Below, piece after piece: positions 8,635-62,103 of a stretch of 64,000 bases of DNA. The stretch comes from Minisyncoccota bacterium (lineage in GTDB: Bacteria; Patescibacteriota; Minisyncoccia; Phycocordibacterales; UBA2100), in assembly GCA_035708165.1 (NCBI GenBank), contig DASSSZ010000003.1, forward strand, positions 23,954 through 87,953. The letters are read 5' to 3'. Position numbers and translations under genes: made by a program. Numbering within the stretch: the first letter of the stretch is position 1; each line of letters starts with the position of its first letter. Below the pieces are notes generated by a model that saw only the letters and a list, made by a program, of their open reading frames with translations, was not told the DNA's origin and ran no database searches.

Positions 8635-11001
8635 ATGGATATTTCTAACGAAGCGGGGCTCTCTGAGGCAGACGTCGCGGCAGCGCTCAAGCAATACGGT
8701 CCGAATACGTTACCCGAAAAGAAGAAGAACTGGTTCACGCGGCTGTGGGGGTGGGTCGCCTCGCCGATCACGGTCATGCTGCTCCTCGCGGCAGGCCTCT
8801 CCTGGTACGCCGGCAAGCATGCCGATGCCTGGATCATCCTCGCGCTCTTCGTGGTCAATATCACGATCAGCATCTGGCACGAATGGAAGACCGACGACTC
8901 CATCGCCAAGCTGCAGAAGCGCCTCGAGCTCTCCGTGCGCACCAAGCGCTCGGGGAAATGGGAATGGATCCCCTCGACGCAGCTGGTGCCGGGCGACATC
9001 ATCACCCTCTCGATCGGCGCCGTCGTGCCGGCCGACGCGACGATCCTCAAGGCAGAGAACCTCTCGATCAATGAGTCGGTGCTGACCGGCGAATCGCTCC
9101 CGAAGGAGAAGAAGGTCGACGAGACGGCATACTCCGGCTCGTTCGTCGCGACCGGCTCCGGCGTCGCGCGCGTGACGGCGACCGGCGGCAATACCAACTT
9201 CGGCAAGACGGTCGGGCTCGTGGAGCGCACGAAGCGCCGCAGCGCGCTCGAGACCGATATCCTCACCATCTCGACCGGCATCTCGATCGCGAGCATCGTC
9301 GTGGTCGTGCTGCTCTCCGGGGCGTTCATGTTCTGGCTGCATGCGCCGTGGATCGACCTCGTCACGCTCGATCTCTCGCTCCTCATCGCGGGCATCCCGG
9401 TCGCGCTGCCGACCGTGATGAGCCTCATCGTCTCCGTCGGCGTGGTGCAGCTCGCCAAGAAGCATGTCATCGTGCGGCGGCTCTCCTCGCTCGAGGACCT
9501 GGCCAACGTGGACCTGCTGCTCTCCGATAAGACCGGCACGCTCTCGGAGAACAAGCTGCACATCGAGCAGGTGATCCTCTTCAATGCCGCCTCCGATGAA
9601 GAGGTGATCCAGGAAGCGCTCGATGCGGCGTTCGATACGGAGCGCGACGACTACGGCGTCGCCGTCGCCGCGAAAGCCAAGGAGCTCGGGATCACGCAGC
9701 ACGCGCAGATCGAGGTCCTGCCGGGCGACTCCGAGCGCAAGCGCGGCACCGGCATCATCCAGGGCGAGAGCGGCGAATACGTCGTCTCCTACGGCTCGCC
9801 GCACACCATCCAGTCGCTGTGCGACATGGATGCGAAGGAGACGGAATCGTTCGGGCAGCATCTCACCGAGGCTGCGCAGCAAGGATTCCGCGTGATGGCG
9901 GTCGCCATCAACCGCGCGGGCAGGGATGAGGCGCATATGTCGCTCTCCGGGCTGATGCTCATCTCCGATCGGCTGCATCCGGATGCGCCGGCGGCGATCG
10001 CGTTCATGCGCGAGCACGGCATCGGAGTGAAGATGGTCACCGGCGACAACTTCGAGGTGAGCCGCCGCGCAGCATCCGAGCTCGCGCTCGAAGGGACGAT
10101 CTACCGCCGCGACGTGCTCGACCAGGGGAAGGAAGCGATCGCGTCGGTGCTGCCGGACGCAGCCGGCTTCGCGGAAGTCCTGCCGAAGGACAAGTTCGCT
10201 ATCGTGCAGGCGGCGCGGCTCGGGCACATCGTGGCCGTGACCGGCGACGGCATCAACGACCTGCCGGCCGTGCACGAGGCGGATGTGGGCTTCGCGGTCG
10301 CGAACGCGGTGGACGCCTTGAAGACCACGGCGGACATCGTCCTGCTCGAGAATGGCGTGTCGCGCATCCGGGACGCGATCATCGAGGCGCGCCAGATCTT
10401 CTTCCGGCTCGGCAATTATGCGCTCTACCGCATCTCGGAGAGCTTCCGCGTCATCATCACGATCGCGGTGCTCGGCATCCTCTACCGCACGTACCCGCTC
10501 GTGCCGGTGCAGCTGATCGTGCTCGCGTTCCTCAACGACGTGCCGATCATCACGCTCGCGTTCGATCGCGTGAAGCAGGCTGCGAAGCCGCAGCACGTGG
10601 ATATCATCGGGCGCTTCGCCCTGGGCGGCATGTTCGGGCTCGCGGGGATCGGCAACAGTCTCATCATGTTCTTCATCATGTTCAGCATGCTGCACCTGCC
10701 ATGGGGGCAGATCGAGACGCTGTTCTTCCTCAAGCTCGTCGTTTCCGGGCACATGCTCATCTACGTGGCGCATACGAGCGAGCGATGGTGGAAGTTCCTG
10801 CCGAGCTGGCAGGTGATCGCCGCAACGCTCACCACGCAGGCCGTCGCGACCGCCTTCGCGTACTTCGGCATCTTCACCGATCCGGTCCCGCTCTCGCTCA
10901 TTGCCCTCATCTGGGCGTGGTCGTTCCTCTGGATGCAGATCTCCGAGGGGATGAAGCCGCTCCGGCTCGCGATCATGGGACGCGCACACCCAGCGCATTA
11001 G
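8635..11001 (+). CDS. P-type ATPase (type IIIA, H+/Mg2+-ATPase-like)
   Basis: DKTGTLSEN phosphorylation motif, TGES actuator motif, VTGDGINDLPAVHEADVGFAV hinge motif, ten TM. Confidence 0.9.
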   Translation: MDISNEAGLSEADVAAALKQYGPNTLPEKKKNWFTRLWGWVASPITVMLLLAAGLSWYAGKHADAWIILALFVVNITISIWHEWKTDDSIAKLQKRLELSVRTKRSGKWEWIPSTQLVPGDIITLSIGAVVPADATILKAENLSINESVLTGESLPKEKKVDETAYSGSFVATGSGVARVTATGGNTNFGKTVGLVERTKRRSALETDILTISTGISIASIVVVVLLSGAFMFWLHAPWIDLVTLDLSLLIAGIPVALPTVMSLIVSVGVVQLAKKHVIVRRLSSLEDLANVDLLLSDKTGTLSENKLHIEQVILFNAASDEEVIQEALDAAFDTERDDYGVAVAAKAKELGITQHAQIEVLPGDSERKRGTGIIQGESGEYVVSYGSPHTIQSLCDMDAKETESFGQHLTEAAQQGFRVMAVAINRAGRDEAHMSLSGLMLISDRLHPDAPAAIAFMREHGIGVKMVTGDNFEVSRRAASELALEGTIYRRDVLDQGKEAIASVLPDAAGFAEVLPKDKFAIVQAARLGHIVAVTGDGINDLPAVHEADVGFAVANAVDALKTTADIVLLENGVSRIRDAIIEARQIFFRLGNYALYRISESFRVIITIAVLGILYRTYPLVPVQLIVLAFLNDVPIITLAFDRVKQAAKPQHVDIIGRFALGGMFGLAGIGNSLIMFFIMFSMLHLPWGQIETLFFLKLVVSGHMLIYVAHTSERWWKFLPSWQVIAATLTTQAVATAFAYFGIFTDPVPLSLIALIWAWSFLWMQISEGMKPLRLAIMGRAHPAH

Positions 11002-41010: not shown

Positions 41011-41081
41011 GCGGGATTCGTTTAGTGGCAGGACGCGACCTTCCCAAGGTTGAGACAGGAGTTCGATTCTCCTATCCCGCA
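41011..41081 (+). tRNA. tRNA-Gly (anticodon CCC)
   Basis: Acceptor GCGGGAT/ATCCCGC, anticodon arm CGACC-TTCCCAA-GGTTG, T-arm AGGAG-TTCGATT-CTCCT. Confidence 0.8.
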
Positions 41082-41130
41082 CAAATCGGCCACTCATGAA
41101 AGCGACAGCTTTCATGAGAGCTGCCGTTCG

Positions 41131-41150
41131 TAGCGGGAGAGGAGAATCGA
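41131..41150. repeat. inverted partial copy of tRNA-Gly T-arm (GGAGAGGAGAATCGAAAGCC)
   Basis: Reverse complement CGGCTTTCGATTCTCCTCTCCC matches tRNA-Gly TTCGATTCTCCT. Confidence 0.5.
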
Positions 41151-41241
41151 AAGCCGCAGCACCGTGGAGCGGGGCGAGGCCGGGTCGGCGCGCTTGGTAT
41201 TTGAGGGCCCGCAGGGCACTCATATACGTAGCGACGGTGAC

Positions 41242-41288
41242 CGATTCTTCTATCCCGCACACATCGGCTACTCATGAAAGCGGCAGCT
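41242..41288 (+). repeat. about 47-bp imperfect direct repeat of tRNA-Gly 3' end plus 30 nt downstream flank
   Basis: CGATTCTTCTATCCCGCACACATCGGCTACTCATGAAAGCGGCAGCT versus 41064..41110 CGATTCTCCTATCCCGCACAAATCGGCCACTCATGAAAGCGACAGCT (4 mismatches). Confidence 0.6.
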
Positions 41289-55339: not shown

Positions 55340-55590
55340 ACTACTAGATGAGTGGGGTGAGATAATTAACGCTATTCCCGATGATACCACCATTAAGGGA
55401 GCTGCACGGAGCGGCAGCGAAGCCCTGTGGATACGGGGGGTGGCCGGCGCGGCTCTGTCCGAGTCCGAAGTTTCTATCTGCGGGCTACTCGGGATTCAGA
55501 CTTTGCAGGTCAAGCCCTGTAAGGGTATTTTGGCACCTTCTCGCGGAGTTATTTGAGGTGTTCAGGTCGCAAGCATAAAATCAGTCCATC

Positions 55591-56268
55591 ATGAGTATCA
55601 TACGTTTTGCAGTGGGAACCCGAGATGATCTACGCTCTTCCGTATGGCGCTTATGGGCTAACAAGAACGACTTATATCTAGCAGCCCGTTCGCATGCAAT
55701 GATTTCAAAATTTAGTTTTCACGAGTCTGGGAAGTATCGATTCGCAGTGAATAGCGCGGTTGAACGAGAAAACGATGCGAGTGATCGGGCGTTGTATAAA
55801 TGGACACGCCCATCCGAATTCGCCCCCGGTTGGACTCGTTGTTTCGGAATACTCGTTCCACAAAGAGTTACTCGATCACCTTTCGGAATCAGCTTCGATG
55901 AGAATAAAGCAGTTGAGCTTGTTAGCCCCCCTGCCAAGGGTAAGAAGGTTATTTTCAACATCATCCTTTCCCACAAAGCGGCTAAGCCCGAGCATGTAAT
56001 CCGCGGCTCAGCTCACAAAATAAAGATTTTGGGGCGGATCGAGATGCTGCGAGAGATTGCATGGCTAGTCACTTTTGAGGATGATTTTGGTCCCACGGAG
56101 GAGGCAGTGATTCAGGACCATTTCGACAAGCTAAAAATCCATCTCAAACCAGGGAGCACTGGAGAAGGGATGCGGTACACCTTCCTTCATGCTATTGAAC
56201 AGGGCGAGACACCCTTTCTAATTGACATAGAGCTCGGCAGGGAAAATCTAGATATCTCCGCTGTCTAA
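55591..56268 (+). CDS. hypothetical protein (island orphan)
   Basis: 225-aa ORF with island codon usage. No recognised domain. Confidence 0.5.
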   Translation: MSIIRFAVGTRDDLRSSVWRLWANKNDLYLAARSHAMISKFSFHESGKYRFAVNSAVERENDASDRALYKWTRPSEFAPGWTRCFGILVPQRVTRSPFGISFDENKAVELVSPPAKGKKVIFNIILSHKAAKPEHVIRGSAHKIKILGRIEMLREIAWLVTFEDDFGPTEEAVIQDHFDKLKIHLKPGSTGEGMRYTFLHAIEQGETPFLIDIELGRENLDISAV

Positions 56269-56300
56269 GTGCCCGGGTCTGTCCGATCAAAAGTACTGAC

Positions 56301-56314
56301 TGCGGAGAGGGAGG
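56301..56314 (-). repeat. direct partial copy of tRNA-Ser 3' acceptor end (TGCGGAGAGGGAGG)
   Basis: Identical to 56485..56498, the 3' terminus of tRNA-Ser. Confidence 0.5.
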
Positions 56315-56410
56315 ATCCGTCCTGACGGTCACTAAGCTCGCTGCGCTCGCTAAGTGCCGCGGGACACGGCTCGCCGGCAAGCAGCCTCCCTACAGTCGGC
56401 TCTTGTATAC

Positions 56411-56434
56411 CGGCTCCGCCGTTCGAATCCCTCC
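56411..56434 (+). repeat. inverted partial copy of tRNA-Ser T-loop plus acceptor 3' strand
   Basis: GTTCGAATCCCTCCCTCTCTCGCA versus tRNA-Ser GTTCGAATCCCTCCCTCTCCGCA (one inserted T). Lacks 5' T-stem, so not a functional tRNA. Confidence 0.55.
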
Positions 56435-56486
56435 CTCTCTCGCAACATGCAACAAACCCGAAGCTTCGCTTCGAGTTTGGCAGTTG

Positions 56487-56573
56487 CGGAGAGGGAGGGA
56501 TTCGAACCCTCGAGACCGTTACCAGCCTGCCGCATTTCGAGTGCGGTGCCTTCGACCACTCAGCCACCTCTCC
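56487..56573 (-). tRNA. tRNA-Ser (anticodon CGA), type II long variable arm
   Basis: Reverse complement: acceptor GGAGAGG/CCTCTCC, anticodon arm CCGCA-CTCGAAA-TGCGG, long variable arm, T-arm GAGGG-TTCGAAT-CCCTC. Confidence 0.8.
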
Positions 56574-56672
56574 GTGGTATGTCGCCATCGGGGTCGAATC
56601 CGACGTGCCTCGTACGATACCATATTTATAAAAGTTTATAAAAGCCAGAAAATACGCTACTATTCGCACGGC

Positions 56673-56744
56673 GGCCCTATCGTCTAATGGTTAGGACAGC
56701 GCCCTTTCACGGCGTAAATCCGGGTTCGATTCCCGGTAGGGTCA
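56673..56744 (+). tRNA. tRNA-Glu (anticodon TTC)
   Basis: Acceptor GGCCCTA/TAGGGTC (one G-U), anticodon arm GCGCC-CTTTCAC-GGCGT, T-arm CCGGG-TTCGATT-CCCGG. Confidence 0.7.
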
Positions 56745-58129
56745 CAAGAAGCAACAAAACGGCTTTGCAGAGCTGCAAATCCTTTTTTGCACTTATAATC
56801 CAACGTATTTTCTGTCAGGGTGAGTTCGGAAAAAATCACACGAAGTATTTTGTCTTTCTCATGCGGTTCGGCCTCTGAGTAAACAACTGCGGCGTTTTTT
56901 AACAGTTCGGAAAGCAAAATTACATCTTTGATGGTTTCGCGCATCGCCACGTCCGAGGCGTTTTCATTATCTTTGAGTTGATTGAGTTCGTTTGTGAGCC
57001 GAGCTTCTTCTGCGACGTATCCTTCGGGTGTGTACACGCCAGTTTTCAGAAGCACGAGACGATTGCCGTTGAGATACGCCAGCTCCTCGCGGATTTGCTT
57101 CTTCTTGCGCTCGGCCGCATCGAGCTGACTCATACGCTTTGCCTCCAACAATGCAATGTCGGTATTCGCCCGCGCGTCAATTTCCGCAAGCTCCTCCTCG
57201 GTAAACGAAAGCTTGGTAATCAATTCCTCGGTCTTCGCTGTCAGGTAGTCGAAGTTGAAGCTCTTGAGCGAGTTGGTGCACTCGCGGGAGCAACGAGCGC
57301 CGTAGTACAAAATCCCTTTCTTTACATATGGAGTGTAGACGCGACCACAAACGGCACAGAAAGCGAATCCTCGCAGCGGATGCTCTAGCACCTCGATGTA
57401 GTGAACACTCTTGTTGCGCTTCGCAAGCCGCTCCTGCACACGATTGAAAAGCTCCTCGGGAATAATTGCCTCGTGGCTGGTGCTCGGTATCCACTCACGA
57501 TTCTCATCGAGTACCTTGCCTGTGTAATAGCGGTTCGTCAGGATTTTGTGGATGGTGTTGTACGTCGGTAGGCGGCTTATCGCTTCAATATCAACTCGTA
57601 CATCGTCTTCCTCCTCAAGCAACATCTCCTCTTTTGTTCGACGACGGCGCATCGGTGGCATAGTAAATCCCTGCTCGATAGCCCATCGCGCAAGGTCGTG
57701 CAGGCTCCATTCGCCAGTATCGGCAAGCTTCGCAAGCTGCAAAATAATAGAAGCGCGAACAGGGTCTTTAGGCTTCCAGTCCATATTGCCCTCGTTGAGG
57801 TAGCCAACAGGCGCTTTGTTAGTGGAGAGTCCGCGCGAACGGGCGTTTTGAATGGTAAGGGTGACTTTCTCGCGGGTCACGCGAGAGTGGTGCTCCGAGA
57901 ACATACCGTCTATGTCCATATGCAGTTCGCCAGAGCTGGTCTTGTCGTACTGTGCGAACGCGAAGCGGATATCCGCTCCCGACTTCATTAGTTTACGCAG
58001 AATAGTATCGTCGCCCTTGTTGCGGCTCGCTCTATCCCAGCAGAGAAATATCGCGCCCCTGAAGTAGCCCTTGCTTACAAACTCCGCGAGGCGATAAAAC
58101 TTTGGGCGCTCGACTCGGTACTGCACCAT
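56684..58129 (-). CDS. large serine recombinase, 5'-truncated (catalytic Ser-containing N-terminus absent)
   Basis: Matches distal resolvase catalytic domain (LCWDRASRNKGD, MFSEHHSRVTREKV, PVGYL), recombinase domain, zinc-ribbon (CAVCGRVY...CSRECT), coiled-coil. About 60 N-terminal aa including YxRVSTxxQ not encoded upstream in any frame. 3' end runs antisense through tRNA-Glu. Confidence 0.75.
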   Translation of the reverse strand: MVQYRVERPKFYRLAEFVSKGYFRGAIFLCWDRASRNKGDDTILRKLMKSGADIRFAFAQYDKTSSGELHMDIDGMFSEHHSRVTREKVTLTIQNARSRGLSTNKAPVGYLNEGNMDWKPKDPVRASIILQLAKLADTGEWSLHDLARWAIEQGFTMPPMRRRRTKEEMLLEEEDDVRVDIEAISRLPTYNTIHKILTNRYYTGKVLDENREWIPSTSHEAIIPEELFNRVQERLAKRNKSVHYIEVLEHPLRGFAFCAVCGRVYTPYVKKGILYYGARCSRECTNSLKSFNFDYLTAKTEELITKLSFTEEELAEIDARANTDIALLEAKRMSQLDAAERKKKQIREELAYLNGNRLVLLKTGVYTPEGYVAEEARLTNELNQLKDNENASDVAMRETIKDVILLSELLKNAAVVYSEAEPHEKDKILRVIFSELTLTENTLDYKCKKGFAALQSRFVASCDPTGNRTRIYAVKGRCPNH

Positions 58130-58197
58130 ACCTTCCTCGAAAGTGAGGGCAGTATCGGGTTATTTCAATTGTCCGCTCGGGGCTGTAAAGTTGAGCG

Positions 58198-59121
58198 ATG
58201 GCACGCCCGCTCGGTAGCATTTCCACAAACATCGAACCAAAGAGACTCAAGCGGCTTCTGGCTCTTGAAAAAGAAAGGCGCGGTGTAGCAGAGGATAAGC
58301 TAGTATTCGTGGGCATAGCGAATCTCGCCAGCTATTACTGGTGCGCCATGCACTCGGTTCTAAAAAGTAGAGCGGATGAGGCGATGTTTTTCGGCGCGTA
58401 TCTCGCAGACCGCATCCGCTACAGCAAGGAGCTTGGCCTGATTCGGTCGCTGCCAAGGACGGACGCGGAGCTGCTACGTGTCGGCGAAGAAATAACTTTC
58501 GAGGATGTTGAGAAGTTGCTCGCAAAAAGGCCTGTCGCGTCTAGCGACGTCAGTCTGGACGCGTACAGTTTCGGTGACAGCAACGGAGGGATGCAGATGG
58601 TGATAAATCCGAACGTCTCTGCCGAACGCAGAAAGTCGCTGGAGAGCGATGCGCGACGCAATAAATTGAAGATTACCGACCTGGAGAAAGTGCCCATCGT
58701 CCGCGGCAACATGATGCACTGGAATAATCCCGAGAAGTACCGCTCTATACGCTGGAACTTCCAAGCAGGTGTGTATGTCATCGTCGGCGTACCTGATGGC
58801 ATAACGGACGATAGCGTATATGAGTACAAAACAACCAAAAGCGACTTCCTCGCGGGATTCGTGAAGCCAGTCGCTTTCGCACAAGCAGACCTGTACGGGC
58901 ACTTCTTCAGACGGTCAAAAAAACGTGTGCAGATACAGGTCATCGAAACGAGCAAAACCCAAACGTGGGAAGAACCGATAGACGAGACGCGGGTAGGAAC
59001 GTTGGTACACGACTTTGCACAGGTGGATGCAGGAAAGCTTTTCCCGCACCCTCCGAAAAGCTGGAAATGCGCCAGGTGCGAGATATGCGGCTTCGGAAAA
59101 CTCTGTCAAAAACAACAATGA
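58198..59121 (+). CDS. Cas4-like PD-(D/E)XK nuclease with 4Fe-4S Cys cluster (DUF83/RecB-nuclease family)
   Basis: N-terminal Cys (YYWCAMH), motif II D (VPDGITDD), motif III EYK (VYEYKTTK), QxxxY (QADLYGHFF), C-terminal CARCEICGFGKLC. Confidence 0.65.
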   Translation: MARPLGSISTNIEPKRLKRLLALEKERRGVAEDKLVFVGIANLASYYWCAMHSVLKSRADEAMFFGAYLADRIRYSKELGLIRSLPRTDAELLRVGEEITFEDVEKLLAKRPVASSDVSLDAYSFGDSNGGMQMVINPNVSAERRKSLESDARRNKLKITDLEKVPIVRGNMMHWNNPEKYRSIRWNFQAGVYVIVGVPDGITDDSVYEYKTTKSDFLAGFVKPVAFAQADLYGHFFRRSKKRVQIQVIETSKTQTWEEPIDETRVGTLVHDFAQVDAGKLFPHPPKSWKCARCEICGFGKLCQKQQ

Positions 59122-59732
59122 GCAAGATAAAATCCCATCTCACCATCGGCAACAAGTTCCTCGGCTCGCTTCTGTACTTCAAGGATGCGAATGGGCGGGG
59201 TCATCTCAAACTGTCGTTCAAAAACAAAATTGCGGGCTTCAACAAGGGCACGGACGTGCCGACCACGTTGCCTGTGCCCGTACAGTCGCCCGACCCCGTA
59301 AGCTTGGATGTTTCCTACAAGTTTCCCGATAGCTTGCTGGAGGTGAAGAAAGTTGCGGGCGGCAAAACCGAGCGCGAGTTCTATAACGTGCCACTACCTG
59401 TCTCCAATCTTTTATTTATGATTCGCATCAAGGACTGGCATCTCCTCGACGATGACCAACCTGCGCCAAATCCGCTGGTGCTCGCGCCTCCCGATGGGAG
59501 CAAGAGCGTCGCGGTCATCTTTTCGTTTCTCGGTGCAAATGGGCTGCCATTCGTACCTACTGGATACGTCTGCCCGCAAGGGATGGGTACGATATCTGTC
59601 CCCGAAAGTCCGCTCAATACTTTTTGCATCGGCATTGCGGCTGACCCCTCGAACCAGAGCGCCAACGGCTTCCAAGTGCAAATCCCGTTTCCTAAAGCAG
59701 AACAAGACGGGTTTTTAGGTTTGAAGCAATAA
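59118..59732 (+). CDS. hypothetical protein, translationally coupled to Cas4-like gene
   Basis: ATG 59118 overlaps the upstream stop (ATGA). 204 aa. No domain recognised. Confidence 0.55.
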   Translation: MSKIKSHLTIGNKFLGSLLYFKDANGRGHLKLSFKNKIAGFNKGTDVPTTLPVPVQSPDPVSLDVSYKFPDSLLEVKKVAGGKTEREFYNVPLPVSNLLFMIRIKDWHLLDDDQPAPNPLVLAPPDGSKSVAVIFSFLGANGLPFVPTGYVCPQGMGTISVPESPLNTFCIGIAADPSNQSANGFQVQIPFPKAEQDGFLGLKQ

Positions 59733-59750
59733 AGAATCTATAATAATTAT

Positions 59751-60209
59751 ATGGACGCATTTTTCATATTCTCGGCTCAATACTTCTTTGTCTTGTCATT
59801 GATTATTCTCGGTGCGTACTTCCTCACGCGAAAATGGCCTGCACAAAAACGGATGACGTTTTTTGCAGTGCCCGCAGGCCTGCTCGCCTATGTGCTCGGG
59901 CTGCTCGGCAATTACCTCTACTATGACCCGCGTCCCTTTGTTGCAGGACACTTCATGCCGCTCATCGCACACGCGGCCGATAACGGGTTCCCCTCCGACC
60001 ATACCTTGCTCGTTTCAACGCTCGCTGCGGTGGGCATGTACTGGAACAAATGGCTTGGAGTAATACTTTGGATTATTGCTGTTCTCGTCGCGTTTTCCCG
60101 CATATATGTCGGCCTGCATCATCCGATTGATGTCCTCGGAAGCATGGCGATTGCCCTAGTCGCGGTTTCTGCATGGCGTATAGCAATGAACTATGTTTGG
60201 AAAGCATAA
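59751..60209 (+). CDS. PAP2 family phosphatase
   Basis: Motifs KxxxxxxRP-like, PSDH, SRIYVGLHHPIDV. Confidence 0.8.
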   Translation: MDAFFIFSAQYFFVLSLIILGAYFLTRKWPAQKRMTFFAVPAGLLAYVLGLLGNYLYYDPRPFVAGHFMPLIAHAADNGFPSDHTLLVSTLAAVGMYWNKWLGVILWIIAVLVAFSRIYVGLHHPIDVLGSMAIALVAVSAWRIAMNYVWKA

Positions 60210-60864
60210 GTTTTTGAAGATTGCTTCCCTCGTTGCCGTCCTTCTTGCTTTGGGTGTAATCACTTTTTTTATACTGCTTCGGCCAGGCCCGCTTTTCTCT
60301 ACACTTCCTGCTACCACAACCGCCTCTTTCGGGCATACTGGCGACCCTATCAACATCGCCGTCGTGGGAGACAAGGGTACCATCGTGTCCGCGTTTCTCG
60401 CCGCCCATTGGCTCGTACCAGACCCGATTACTGCCTCAAGCACCGTGCGGATTGCAGAAACGAGCATCGCCAATTCCGCATACCCAACCGCTCCAGTAAG
60501 CAGCCTGTATCTATTCGGTAGAGCGCAGGATTTGGCATTTGAACTGCCCACCGACTCTGTACGACAGCGACACCACGTGCGGCTATGGCAAACTACAATA
60601 ACAATCTCTGGTAAGCCACTCTGGGTAGGTTCGGCAACGTACGATTCGGACATTGAGTTGAGCGGAACAACCGCCTTGCCGACACATCATATTTCTCCGA
60701 ACGTAGACAGTGAGCGCGACTTTGTGGCGCAATCATTTATGGACGCTGGACTCATGCAGAGCGAGACATCCAACCGCATCAGTTATCCGACGCTCTGGGG
60801 ATTCAATGGCGGCGGCGATTGGTATTTTGATGATGGACTCGTGCGTATGCTCGTATTGCGATAA
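60193..60864 (+). CDS. LssY C-terminal domain-like protein (usually fused to PAP2)
   Basis: N-terminal TM, INIAVVGDKGTIVSAFLAAHWLVPDP ... HHVRLWQT ... similar to LssY_C. Overlaps the PAP2 ORF by 17 nt in another frame. Confidence 0.55.
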   Translation: MFGKHKFLKIASLVAVLLALGVITFFILLRPGPLFSTLPATTTASFGHTGDPINIAVVGDKGTIVSAFLAAHWLVPDPITASSTVRIAETSIANSAYPTAPVSSLYLFGRAQDLAFELPTDSVRQRHHVRLWQTTITISGKPLWVGSATYDSDIELSGTTALPTHHISPNVDSERDFVAQSFMDAGLMQSETSNRISYPTLWGFNGGGDWYFDDGLVRMLVLR

Positions 60865-60873
60865 TGTGAAGTT

Positions 60874-61377
60874 ATGACCCTTGCGTCTCTCAAAAACTAC
60901 CTGCTTGAAGAAAAACACATGCACCTGTTCTTCGTGGTGAGTCTCTGGGCGAAGGGTCTATTCGCCCTGTCGGAAATAATCGGAGGCATCGCCGCGTTCT
61001 TCATAACCAAGCAGTTCCTCGTAGACATCGCACTATGGATTACCAAGCACGAGTTCGCTGAAGACCCGCACGATGTTATTGCCAACTATTTCCTACATTC
61101 GGTACAGAATCTATCAATCGGTGCACAGGACTTTGCGGCCATATATCTGCTTGGGCACGGCGTCATCAAGCTCTGGCTCATCATTGGACTTCTGCGGGAG
61201 CGGCTCTGGTACTATCCAACAGCCCTCGTCGTATTCGGACTTTTCATTGTCTACCAGCTTTACCGATATACATTCACTCACTCTATCTGGCTTTTGCTCA
61301 TCACGGTCATAGACCTCATTGTCATCGGCCTCACCTGGCACGAGTGGGGATACTTACGAAAGCACAGAATCCAATAG
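60874..61377 (+). CDS. hypothetical membrane protein (DUF2127-like)
   Basis: 167 aa, four TM. Last gene before the GC rise. Confidence 0.45.
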   Translation: MTLASLKNYLLEEKHMHLFFVVSLWAKGLFALSEIIGGIAAFFITKQFLVDIALWITKHEFAEDPHDVIANYFLHSVQNLSIGAQDFAAIYLLGHGVIKLWLIIGLLRERLWYYPTALVVFGLFIVYQLYRYTFTHSIWLLLITVIDLIVIGLTWHEWGYLRKHRIQ

Positions 61378-61500
61378 CTAGACGACCACCAGCTCTCGCA
61401 ACTCTTGGATGCTCAAGCCGATGGCGGCTCGGTATTGTCCGAGTTCGGAAAGCCACGTAAACTGGTCACAAACGGCTCGCTGTGCGTCCGCGCTGGGCAG

Positions 61501-62103
61501 CTAGGCCCCGACCGTTCCAGTCTGCACGCCGCCTGCACGCGTGTAGCTTGCGAAATAGACGCCGTTGGCAGCGACGTGATGCTCGCCGAGCGTGAAGGCT
61601 GCGGGGAGCGTGCCTTCCGCGAAAAGTCGCTTGCCGGTGCCGAGCGTGATCGGGAAGGTCATGAGCCTCAGCTCGTCCACCCAATCATGCTTGAAGAGCG
61701 TCTGCGCCAGATTGCCGCTGCCGATGCTGATGAGGTCGCCGCCATCGGATTCCTTCAGCTTCCGGATGTCGTCATCGCCTTTCAGGAACACCGAATGCTG
61801 CCAGTCAGATTCGGCAAGGGTCGTGCTCGCGCAGTATTTCGTGACGTCATTGATGCTCGGCTACGGATCCGCATGGCTCGACCAGAAAGCCGCGAAGATC
61901 TCGAACGTCTTCCTGCCGAGGAGGATGTCCGCAGGCTGCATCCACTTCTGCATCAGCGCATCGGCTTCCCGATCAGCGTCCGCGAAATACGGCGCGGTCC
62001 ATCTGCCGTATGCAAAGCCGCTCGATGCGTCTTCGTCCGGTCTGCCCGGCGCCTGCACGACGCCGTCGAGGGTGATGAACTCCTGGACGATCAGCCTTCT
62101 CAT
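61501..62103 (-). pseudogene. dihydrofolate reductase family protein (RibD_C-like), frameshifted
   Basis: N-terminal half (MRRLIVQEFITLDGVVQAPG ... ADILLGRKTFEIFAAFW) in ORF 61861..62103. C-terminal half (GDDDIRKLKESDGGDLISIGSGNLAQTLFKHDWVDELRLMTFPITLGTGKRLF) in ORF 61501..61791, different frame. Confidence 0.6.

Follow-up and report, generated by a model that had tools for sequence, protein, structure and literature searches.

How did a block of low-GC DNA come to surround a pair of divergent tRNA genes in a member of the Patescibacteria? The question is raised by a stretch of 64,000 nucleotides from a Minisyncoccota bacterium (GenBank assembly GCA_035708165.1, contig DASSSZ010000003.1, positions 23,954 to 87,953 of the forward strand; hereafter the window), in which the guanine plus cytosine (GC) content falls abruptly between about 55.4 and 61.47 kb. 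An earlier reading of the letters alone (the original prediction) took this block for a horizontally acquired, now immobilised element with a tRNA, an integrase gene (int) and cargo genes in succession, the integrase being a truncated large serine recombinase (LSR). That central reading is borne out by the analysis reported here. Judged from sequence comparisons across genomes, positions 56740-61470 very probably represent the 4.73-kb remnant of a small integrative element that inserted at the 3' end of a tRNA-Glu(UUC) gene and was disabled later.

Boundaries of the element and its truncated recombinase

The composition of the block sets it apart from its surroundings. One-kilobase segments have a GC of 0.651 (standard deviation 0.025) outside 55-61 kb versus 0.514-0.549 inside, and overall the low-GC DNA stands at 0.517 versus 0.652. 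The tetranucleotide L1 distance to the remaining window is 0.49-0.59 in the block versus 0.21 +/- 0.03 (maximum 0.32) elsewhere, which places the tetranucleotide usage of the block far outside the range of the other sequence. GC at third codon positions (GC3) likewise amounts to 0.48-0.64 in the open reading frames (ORFs) of the island versus about 0.75-0.9 in flanking host genes. The block therefore combines the foreign composition and the sharp boundaries of a genomic island. The drop in GC had been predicted correctly, at a value (45-50%) that is slightly low, given that 0.45-0.49 is reached only by single 400-nt windows inside the block. The island of about 6 kb that had been proposed corresponds to this low-GC block; the integrated element itself occupies only 4.73 kb of it and leaves 55.4-56.5 kb outside.

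Both of the outward-facing tRNA genes in the original prediction are found by ARAGORN and by the Rfam tRNA model, namely tRNA-Ser(CGA) at 56486-56573 on the minus strand (58.3 bits) and tRNA-Glu(UUC) at 56673-56745 on the plus strand (65.5 bits). The latter is the integration target and forms the attB side of attL. Within 56200-61600 the heptamer GGTCACA occurs exactly twice, once as the attL core at 56740-56746, comprising the last bases of tRNA-Glu plus 1-2 nt, and once as the attR core at 61464-61470, which marks the right boundary of the element, with host DNA starting at 61471.

Both junctions align with those of an independently inserted related element. This element lies in locus L046, a 201-kb contig from a genome of about 60% GC that carries ordinary bacterial housekeeping genes, MraZ, a Mur ligase and a transpeptidase among them. 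Here an intact int gene, encoding a protein of 571 amino acids (aa) termed P0001, runs antisense into tRNA-Glu(ctc) and ends there, on the margin of a 9-kb island with a GC of ~0.50. On the tRNA side, identity between the two genomes runs from the 3' end of tRNA-Glu via GGTCACA into the 3' end of int, and DNA identity over 56655-58156 is 79.7%. On the far side, positions 61387-61470 match L046:2583-2666 at 92.9% identity, and this match ceases exactly past GGTCACA, with unrelated host DNA beyond it in each genome. The two GGTCACA junctions are therefore attL and attR, which delimits the element as 56740-61470. The insertion left the tRNA-Glu gene intact, because the exchange lies within its last bases.

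The original prediction had noticed an 8-bp match to the tRNA-Glu end near 61440 and dismissed it for want of a clean repeat. That match, GGTCACA(A) at 61464-61471, is the genuine att core. Serine integrases normally use short att cores, so a long direct repeat was not to be expected; the core shared by attL and attR measures 7 bp in the window and 6-9 bp at other loci. Comparison of 15-mers with the end of tRNA-Glu did not reveal the att sites; the 7-bp core emerged from the cross-genome alignment.

The gene that adjoins this tRNA is a 5'-truncated LSR gene at 56684-58156 on the minus strand, with an ORF of 481 aa from an ATG at 58129. As predicted, the ORF (56684-58129) overlaps tRNA-Glu, by 62 nt, and its final 20 codons are antisense tRNA-Glu. 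The encoded protein matches Pfam Recombinase (E=7e-10) and positions 48-143 of the Resolvase profile, that is, its C-terminal two thirds, and is 88% identical to P0001. A homology search with it gave 833 matches at E<1e-5, of which the best 120 (58-88% identity, mostly 560-600 aa) are the sample for all motif and tail counts given below. Four cysteines (C258, C261, C280 and C284) are invariant in the alignment and are followed by a long helical stretch, so that the Recombinase domain, the zinc ribbon and the embedded coiled coil of an LSR are all present; the Zn_ribbon_recom match of P0001 is weak (E=0.0018, below the cut-off).

What the window copy lacks is the catalytic Resolvase N-terminus with its putative nucleophilic serine. 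Compared with all aligned relatives, ~90-107 N-terminal alignment positions are missing, and with them the segment ..Y-N-R-K-S-T-D-D..Q and the D-G-x-x-S-E-R-H-S-G block that follows it. The motif R[KR]ST[DE], found in 103 of the 120 homologues, is absent here, and the element is therefore probably immobilised, in agreement with the prediction of a decaying element whose recombinase has lost its catalytic N-terminus (about 90 N-terminal residues including RKST are gone). DNA homology to L046 ceases at 58156, 40 nt from the divergent Cas4-like gene described below. The rest of the ORF contains neither stops nor frameshifts, which suggests that the truncation is recent. By its sequence, the window gene is a truncated LSR pseudogene and not a functional member of its family.

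An att site within the integrase reading frame

The DNA adjoining attR explains where the original end of int resides. Positions 61378-61470 on the minus strand constitute the displaced 3' end of int and form the P arm of attR. Read from 61470 to 61378, this segment prolongs the int frame as CDQFTWLSEL... up to a stop codon, and it encodes CDQFTWLSELGQYRAAIGLSIQELRELVVV followed by that stop. The same alternative endings recur among the homologues. In 38 of the 120, the C-terminal tail reads ...(C/G)DP-x-x-W-L-S-E-L...S-I-x-E-L... and the gene does not adjoin a tRNA; in 76, the tail reads ...CDPT-G-N-R-T-P..., as results when the T-arm of a tRNA is translated in antisense; the remaining six have other C-termini.

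At 23 loci (L046 and 22 of 80 metagenome loci) the int ORF runs into an antisense tRNA gene, which is tRNA-Glu (UUC or CUC) in 21 and tRNA-Trp and tRNA-Leu in one each. Nine of these loci, L046 included, have enough upstream sequence for the displaced fragment to be found, and in them a WLSEL-coding fragment follows GTGACC 5.4-10.5 kb upstream of the tRNA. The gene is thus split about 30 codons from its end, and its tail is swapped for 6-22 codons of antisense tRNA. Because attP lies in the last ~30 codons of int, integration splits the gene, and the overlap of int with tRNA is a family-wide consequence of an attP situated in the int reading frame. Two loci carry related arrangements. At L049:1-8754 an unsplit int 3' end stands at the distal end of an integrated element, and at L051:100-1000 two successive displaced int tails do so, which suggests tandem or nested insertions at one tRNA-Glu.

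The comparisons support the following course of events. The LSR inserted its element in the 3' end of tRNA-Glu(UUC) by an exchange of attP with attB within GGTCACA, leaving the tRNA intact. Integration placed the body of int beside the tRNA, where it reads out through the antisense tRNA (...ASCDPT|GNRT...), and moved the original tail (...WLSEL...SIQEL... and stop) to the far end of the element at 61378-61470. The first ~90 codons of int were lost afterwards, by a deletion or replacement whose breakpoint is 58156, together with a small overlapping upstream gene and whatever else stood there. The element could then presumably no longer excise by itself, and its cargo would have become fixed in a Candidatus Paceibacterota chromosome.

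Several observations weigh against this reconstruction. Recombination of attP with attB by family members is deduced from the att junctions, and the reconstructed attP has no clear dyad symmetry. An empty attB, in which tRNA-Glu would be followed directly by AACGGCTCG...RibD_C, was not found in close relatives, and no circular free form was present among the fetched contigs. The RKST serine is a putative nucleophile by motif resemblance; the Resolvase profile of Pfam leaves its first ~42 positions unaligned in full-length members as well. Finally, several relatives with an unsplit WLSEL tail lie on long, apparently chromosomal contigs, so that an attP inside int may be the trait of one clade. 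With regard to the empty site, the nearest species-representative genomes, retrieved with the flanking Mpg-like glycosylase, are Parcubacteria/Paceibacterota metagenome-assembled genomes in which that protein is at most ~63% identical; they are non-syntenic and have no tRNA-Ser/tRNA-Glu pair.

Across 13 integrated loci, the only universally common genes are int and a gene of 60-80 aa that overlaps the int start. This small upstream gene accompanies int in every intact relative examined (in L046 it lies at 9798-10004 and encodes ~68 aa) and is missing from the window copy. A protein of ~450 aa occurs in four of the 13 loci and a DUF5659-like protein of ~90 aa in five; nearly no other gene of the integrated relatives has a family assignment. 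Could the exchange of the WLSEL tail be functional, switching the activity or directionality of the integrase between its free and integrated states, with the small upstream protein as directionality factor? We consider this doubtful, and the role given to the small protein is speculation. If it were true, the family could supply tRNA-Glu landing-pad integrases for genetics in the candidate phyla radiation. A single-sequence AlphaFold run on a full-length integrase with the attP-form tail (P0002) was uninformative (predicted local distance difference test score, pLDDT, 36.6).

Genes for a relaxase, a coupling protein or a type IV secretion system occur neither in the window element nor in L046. 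Distant relatives with unsplit tails lie near Replic_Relax, TrwB-like and ArdC genes, in neighbourhoods resembling those of integrative and conjugative elements (ICEs). One such relative, 59% identical and with an unsplit WLSEL tail, is encoded in L047:1-21800 (JGI 3300044812 Ga0467065_0000070), part of a high-GC genome that bears nonribosomal peptide synthetase genes. Its neighbours include Replic_Relax, a TrwB-like ATPase, a LexA-like repressor, a SymE toxin and a Prok-E2/ThiF/JAB gene, and the locus is an ICE-like island that may include a ubiquitin-like defence module.

The integrase has the architecture of known LSRs from elements and prophages such as phiC31, Bxb1, A118, TP901-1 and the SCCmec Ccr type: Resolvase and Recombinase domains, a Cys-rich zinc ribbon and a long coiled coil. 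A short identity core between attL and attR, 7 bp here, and the position of int at the element edge are shared as well. The family differs from them in that its target is the 3' end of a tRNA gene and in that its attP lies in the int ORF, so that integration alters the C-terminus of the protein. It is also distant in sequence: INPHARED and PLSDB hold only remote LSRs, at most 25% identical to the integrase, and no PDB chain matched it in a sequence search. A literature search likewise returned no description of the family. On these comparisons it appears to be a widespread, large and undescribed group, present in Patescibacteria and other bacteria. Of the 297 serine-integrase elements that a 2020 survey recorded in 2,168 genomes, only 14 used a t(m)RNA gene, a use that 'has not been reported previously' and was said to need proof (PMC7192596). 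Whether tRNA genes can be a specialised target of serine integrases was left open by that survey work; the present family indicates that they can.

The layout of tRNA, int and cargo is as the original prediction described it, and the word 'classic' fits it only in so far as the layout is classic for tyrosine integrases. Tyrosine-integrase islands at tRNA genes (P4-like islands; pSAM2 and other actinomycete ICEs) share the order of tRNA 3' end, int and cargo, the foreign composition and the preserved tRNA; they differ in their recombinase and in having a tRNA 3' repeat of tens of bp, versus the 7-bp core seen here. The nearest analogue for an attP within int may be the SSV1-type tyrosine integrases of archaeal fuselloviruses and pT26-2-family plasmids, in which attP lies in int and integration into a tRNA gene partitions it. 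In SSV-type integration the gene is split into large N- and C-terminal parts and inactivated, whereas in the present family the exchange is confined to the last ~30 codons, and the integrated-form ORFs (76 of the 120) stay full length. The likeness, an att site in the coding sequence and an int partitioned at a tRNA, is one of function, the enzymes being unrelated (a tyrosine integrase there, Resolvase and Recombinase domains here). Among bacterial serine recombinases, the family thus parallels the archaeal arrangement in which an integrase gene is divided at an att site of its own.

Taken by itself, the locus is a commonplace, dead genomic island; its interest lies in the abundant, uncharacterised integrase family and its att architecture. 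We know of few genetic tools for the phylum Patescibacteria, and the family is a source of candidate tools for site-specific integration there, with attP and attB predicted. Both the predicted sites, which extend ~50 bp to either side of GGTCACA, and full-length enzymes, P0001 among them, lend themselves to direct tests.

Alternative origins and the left part of the block

The left part of the block, on the other side of tRNA-Ser, holds a gene for a 225-aa protein (55591-56268, plus strand; GC 0.478, GC3 0.48; NCBI VFL98_02245, annotated at 189 aa) that is situated outside the LSR element. The original prediction had called it an orphan, a description that no longer applies: 39 homologues were found, with up to 84% identity, all of them unnamed or from Patescibacteria, and the family appears to be restricted to that group. 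DNA homology to the best relative, L139, covers 55566-56287 only. Exact-sequence look-ups of this ORF and of the int ORF gave no match, the gene calls of the source genome being different. The protein matches no Pfam, PADLOC or PHROG family. Its AlphaFold2 model is confident (pLDDT 90.7, predicted template modelling score 0.88) and mostly beta, and no convincing structural neighbour was found in the PDB; on this model it may represent a new fold family confined to Patescibacteria. In L141:5921-8690, also from Patescibacteria, the homologue adjoins tRNA-Ser(cga) and is directly preceded by the gene for a VirB4/TraG-like ATPase of 672 aa, an arrangement suggestive of a tie to a module for conjugation-like transfer or DNA uptake.

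Between this gene and tRNA-Ser lie partial copies of the tRNA. A direct copy of its 3' end (13/14 nt) is located at 56302-56316, 170 nt downstream of the tRNA, and a perfect 19-nt inverted copy of its T-loop and acceptor 3' end at 56421-56439, which pairs with 56489-56507 at 100%. The plus strand of 56295-56460 folds at -75.5 kcal/mol (z = -5.2). A comparable module spans 41011-41260, where tRNA-Gly (ccc, 41011-41082) is followed by an inverted copy at 41133-41151 and a direct copy at 41246-41260. Of the six tRNA genes that the window contains, two (tRNA-Ser and tRNA-Gly) are thus followed by a module of a hairpin, a near-perfect 19-nt inverted copy of the tRNA 3' end, ~100 nt and a direct copy of that end; the direct copy of tRNA-Gly runs on into a copy of the downstream hairpin, and the ends of the inner segments of both modules look alike. 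Among 92 tRNAs in the fetched DNA, a downstream direct copy was found for 5, and for none in the upstream control (0/92). Such modules may be traces left by elements that target tRNA genes, or they may form a structured RNA.

A further short likeness is present next to the inverted tRNA-Ser copy. Positions 56440-56456 (TCGCAACATGCAACAAA) are 82% identical over 17 nt to 56742-56758 (TCACAAGAAGCAACAAA), which comprise the attL core and the P' arm past tRNA-Glu; read antisense they give ..FVACC.., and the int C-terminus reads ..FVASC... A second LSR junction was considered as its origin and set aside, the likeness being too short to be trusted; it may reflect an older junction or chance.

Did the entire block from 55.4 to 61.5 kb, with both tRNAs and the 225-aa gene, arrive in a single event? 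GC is similarly low on either side of the tRNA pair (0.52 and 0.517) and the left edge near 55.4 kb has no boundary repeat, as such an island would allow. The LSR element, however, has precise ends at 56740 and 61470 that exclude the tRNA-Ser side, and the spacer 56269-56485 has a GC of 0.61, near the 0.65 of the host. Elsewhere the two parts occur independently, the tRNA-Glu elements of other genomes being free of the 225-aa gene and of a neighbouring tRNA-Ser, and homologues of the 225-aa gene existing without any LSR. A single-event island is thus very unlikely. A degraded prophage is more improbable still. The integrase does match PHROG 95 'integrase', and Cas4-like nucleases are known from some phages; yet no further island protein matches PHROGs, neither the integrase nor the 225-aa gene has relatives in IMG/VR, the best INPHARED matches reach no more than 25% identity, and the intact relatives, at 5-10 kb, are small and carry nothing recognisable as a virion gene. 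A prophage would be expected to show virion, packaging or lysis genes, or to have relatives on viral contigs, and neither was found. The least probable account is that of native DNA with an odd composition, for instance tRNA-rich and weakly expressed. Other tRNA regions of the window are indeed somewhat poorer in GC (0.60 at 40-42 kb), but the deviation in the block is much larger, the two precise att junctions recur in another genome, in an element at a different tRNA-Glu isoacceptor, and relatives of int reside in hosts of GC 0.39 to 0.65.

The alternative that concerns the left part by itself, namely that it is what remains of another site-specific element, one aimed at the tRNA-Ser 3' end, has more in its favour, and we regard it as possible, though on balance unlikely. 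The foreign composition of the 225-aa gene and the direct and inverted tRNA-Ser copies downstream of the tRNA agree with it, as do homologues that are convergent with tRNA-Ser in two Patescibacteria genomes (126 nt apart in L141, 1.15 kb apart in L139) and the perfect 18-nt direct copies downstream of both tRNA-Ser genes of L141. Conversely, the 225-aa gene lies outside the segment between the tRNA end and the direct copy, and there is neither an integrase nor a distal repeat near 55.4 kb. The homologue in L144 stands amid housekeeping genes with no tRNA-Ser, that in L139 is at native GC, and the same repeat layout recurs at tRNA-Gly with no foreign gene. The proposal that two independently acquired elements flank the tRNA pair therefore holds in that the left part is outside the LSR element, and fails in that a second integrase and att pair cannot be demonstrated. 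The low-GC stretch at 55.4-56.3 kb is likely a separate one-gene acquisition; a second element is unproven, because the gene falls outside the repeat-bracketed segment and no integrase accompanies it.

Cargo and flanking genes

The tRNA-Glu element, as delimited by its two att junctions, has fixed five accessory genes beside an essential tRNA. None of them is a housekeeping gene, as the original prediction had maintained, and none was found in the other elements of the family that were examined. The first (58198-59121, plus strand) encodes a 307-aa Cas4/Exo5-like PD-(D/E)XK nuclease with a four-Cys cluster, 100% identical to NCBI VFL98_02260, a hypothetical protein of a Candidatus Paceibacterota bacterium. 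Residues 165-304 match PADLOC Cas4 profiles (E=1e-5); the window protein has no Pfam match, and its N-terminal ~160 residues, like that region in the family at large, match no profile at all. Across an alignment of 32 family members, PDDEXK_1 is matched by 12 and Cas_Cas4 by 7, and C49, D200, E209, K211, Q229, Y233, C291, C294 and C303 are invariant or nearly so.

The nuclease thus has the PD-(D/E)XK motifs and the four-Cys Fe-S cluster of Cas4, and it resembles stand-alone Cas4/Exo5 Fe-S nucleases in its D...ExK, QxxxY and four-Cys elements, with weak matches to Cas4, PDDEXK_1 and Exo5. It differs from the Cas4 of CRISPR (clustered regularly interspaced short palindromic repeats) systems in its unmatched N-terminus and in its surroundings, for neither the island nor the contexts of four homologues contain a cas operon, other cas genes or a CRISPR array. 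The label Cas4-like holds at the superfamily level only, and the CRISPR link that it might imply does not. The nuclease is solitary. Its homologues (n=148, from bacteria and archaea) show 41-53% identity except for two close relatives, and lie among varying neighbours. The family is met with as single genes in Chloroflexus, Methanosuratincola, Bathyarchaeia and Micrarchaeota (loci L130:6001-8468 and L134:2692-10894), often beside IS200-type or other transposases.

The start of the second gene (59118-59732, plus strand; gene call in L129) overlaps the nuclease stop by 4 nt. Its 204-aa product matches no family and has 47 related cluster representatives, all unannotated, in a library of 1.84 billion proteins. 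A conserved two-gene system of nuclease and 204-aa protein was considered and rejected, as the neighbours of the nuclease homologues are unrelated to the 204-aa protein and to each other.

The three remaining cargo genes, all on the plus strand, encode membrane proteins whose predicted assignments are confirmed by Pfam: a PAP2 family membrane phosphatase of 152 aa (59751-60209; PF01569, E=4.8e-14), an LssY_C domain protein of 223 aa (60193-60864; PF14067, E=6.5e-52), which overlaps the PAP2 gene by 17 nt, and a DUF2127 membrane protein of 167 aa (60874-61377; PF09900, E=2.1e-31).

Host genes flank the block on both sides. By Pfam, the left flank encodes cupredoxin-like, DoxX-like and cupin proteins, and the right flank RibD_C in two pieces, YdeI/OmdA and AHSA1. 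The end of the RibD_C gene that adjoins attR reads ...GGTCACAAACGGCTCGCTG. This dfr-family gene (61501-62103, minus strand), which had been predicted to be a pseudogene, is full length apart from one in-frame TAG at 61861-61863, which may denote a recent pseudogene, a sequencing error or read-through.

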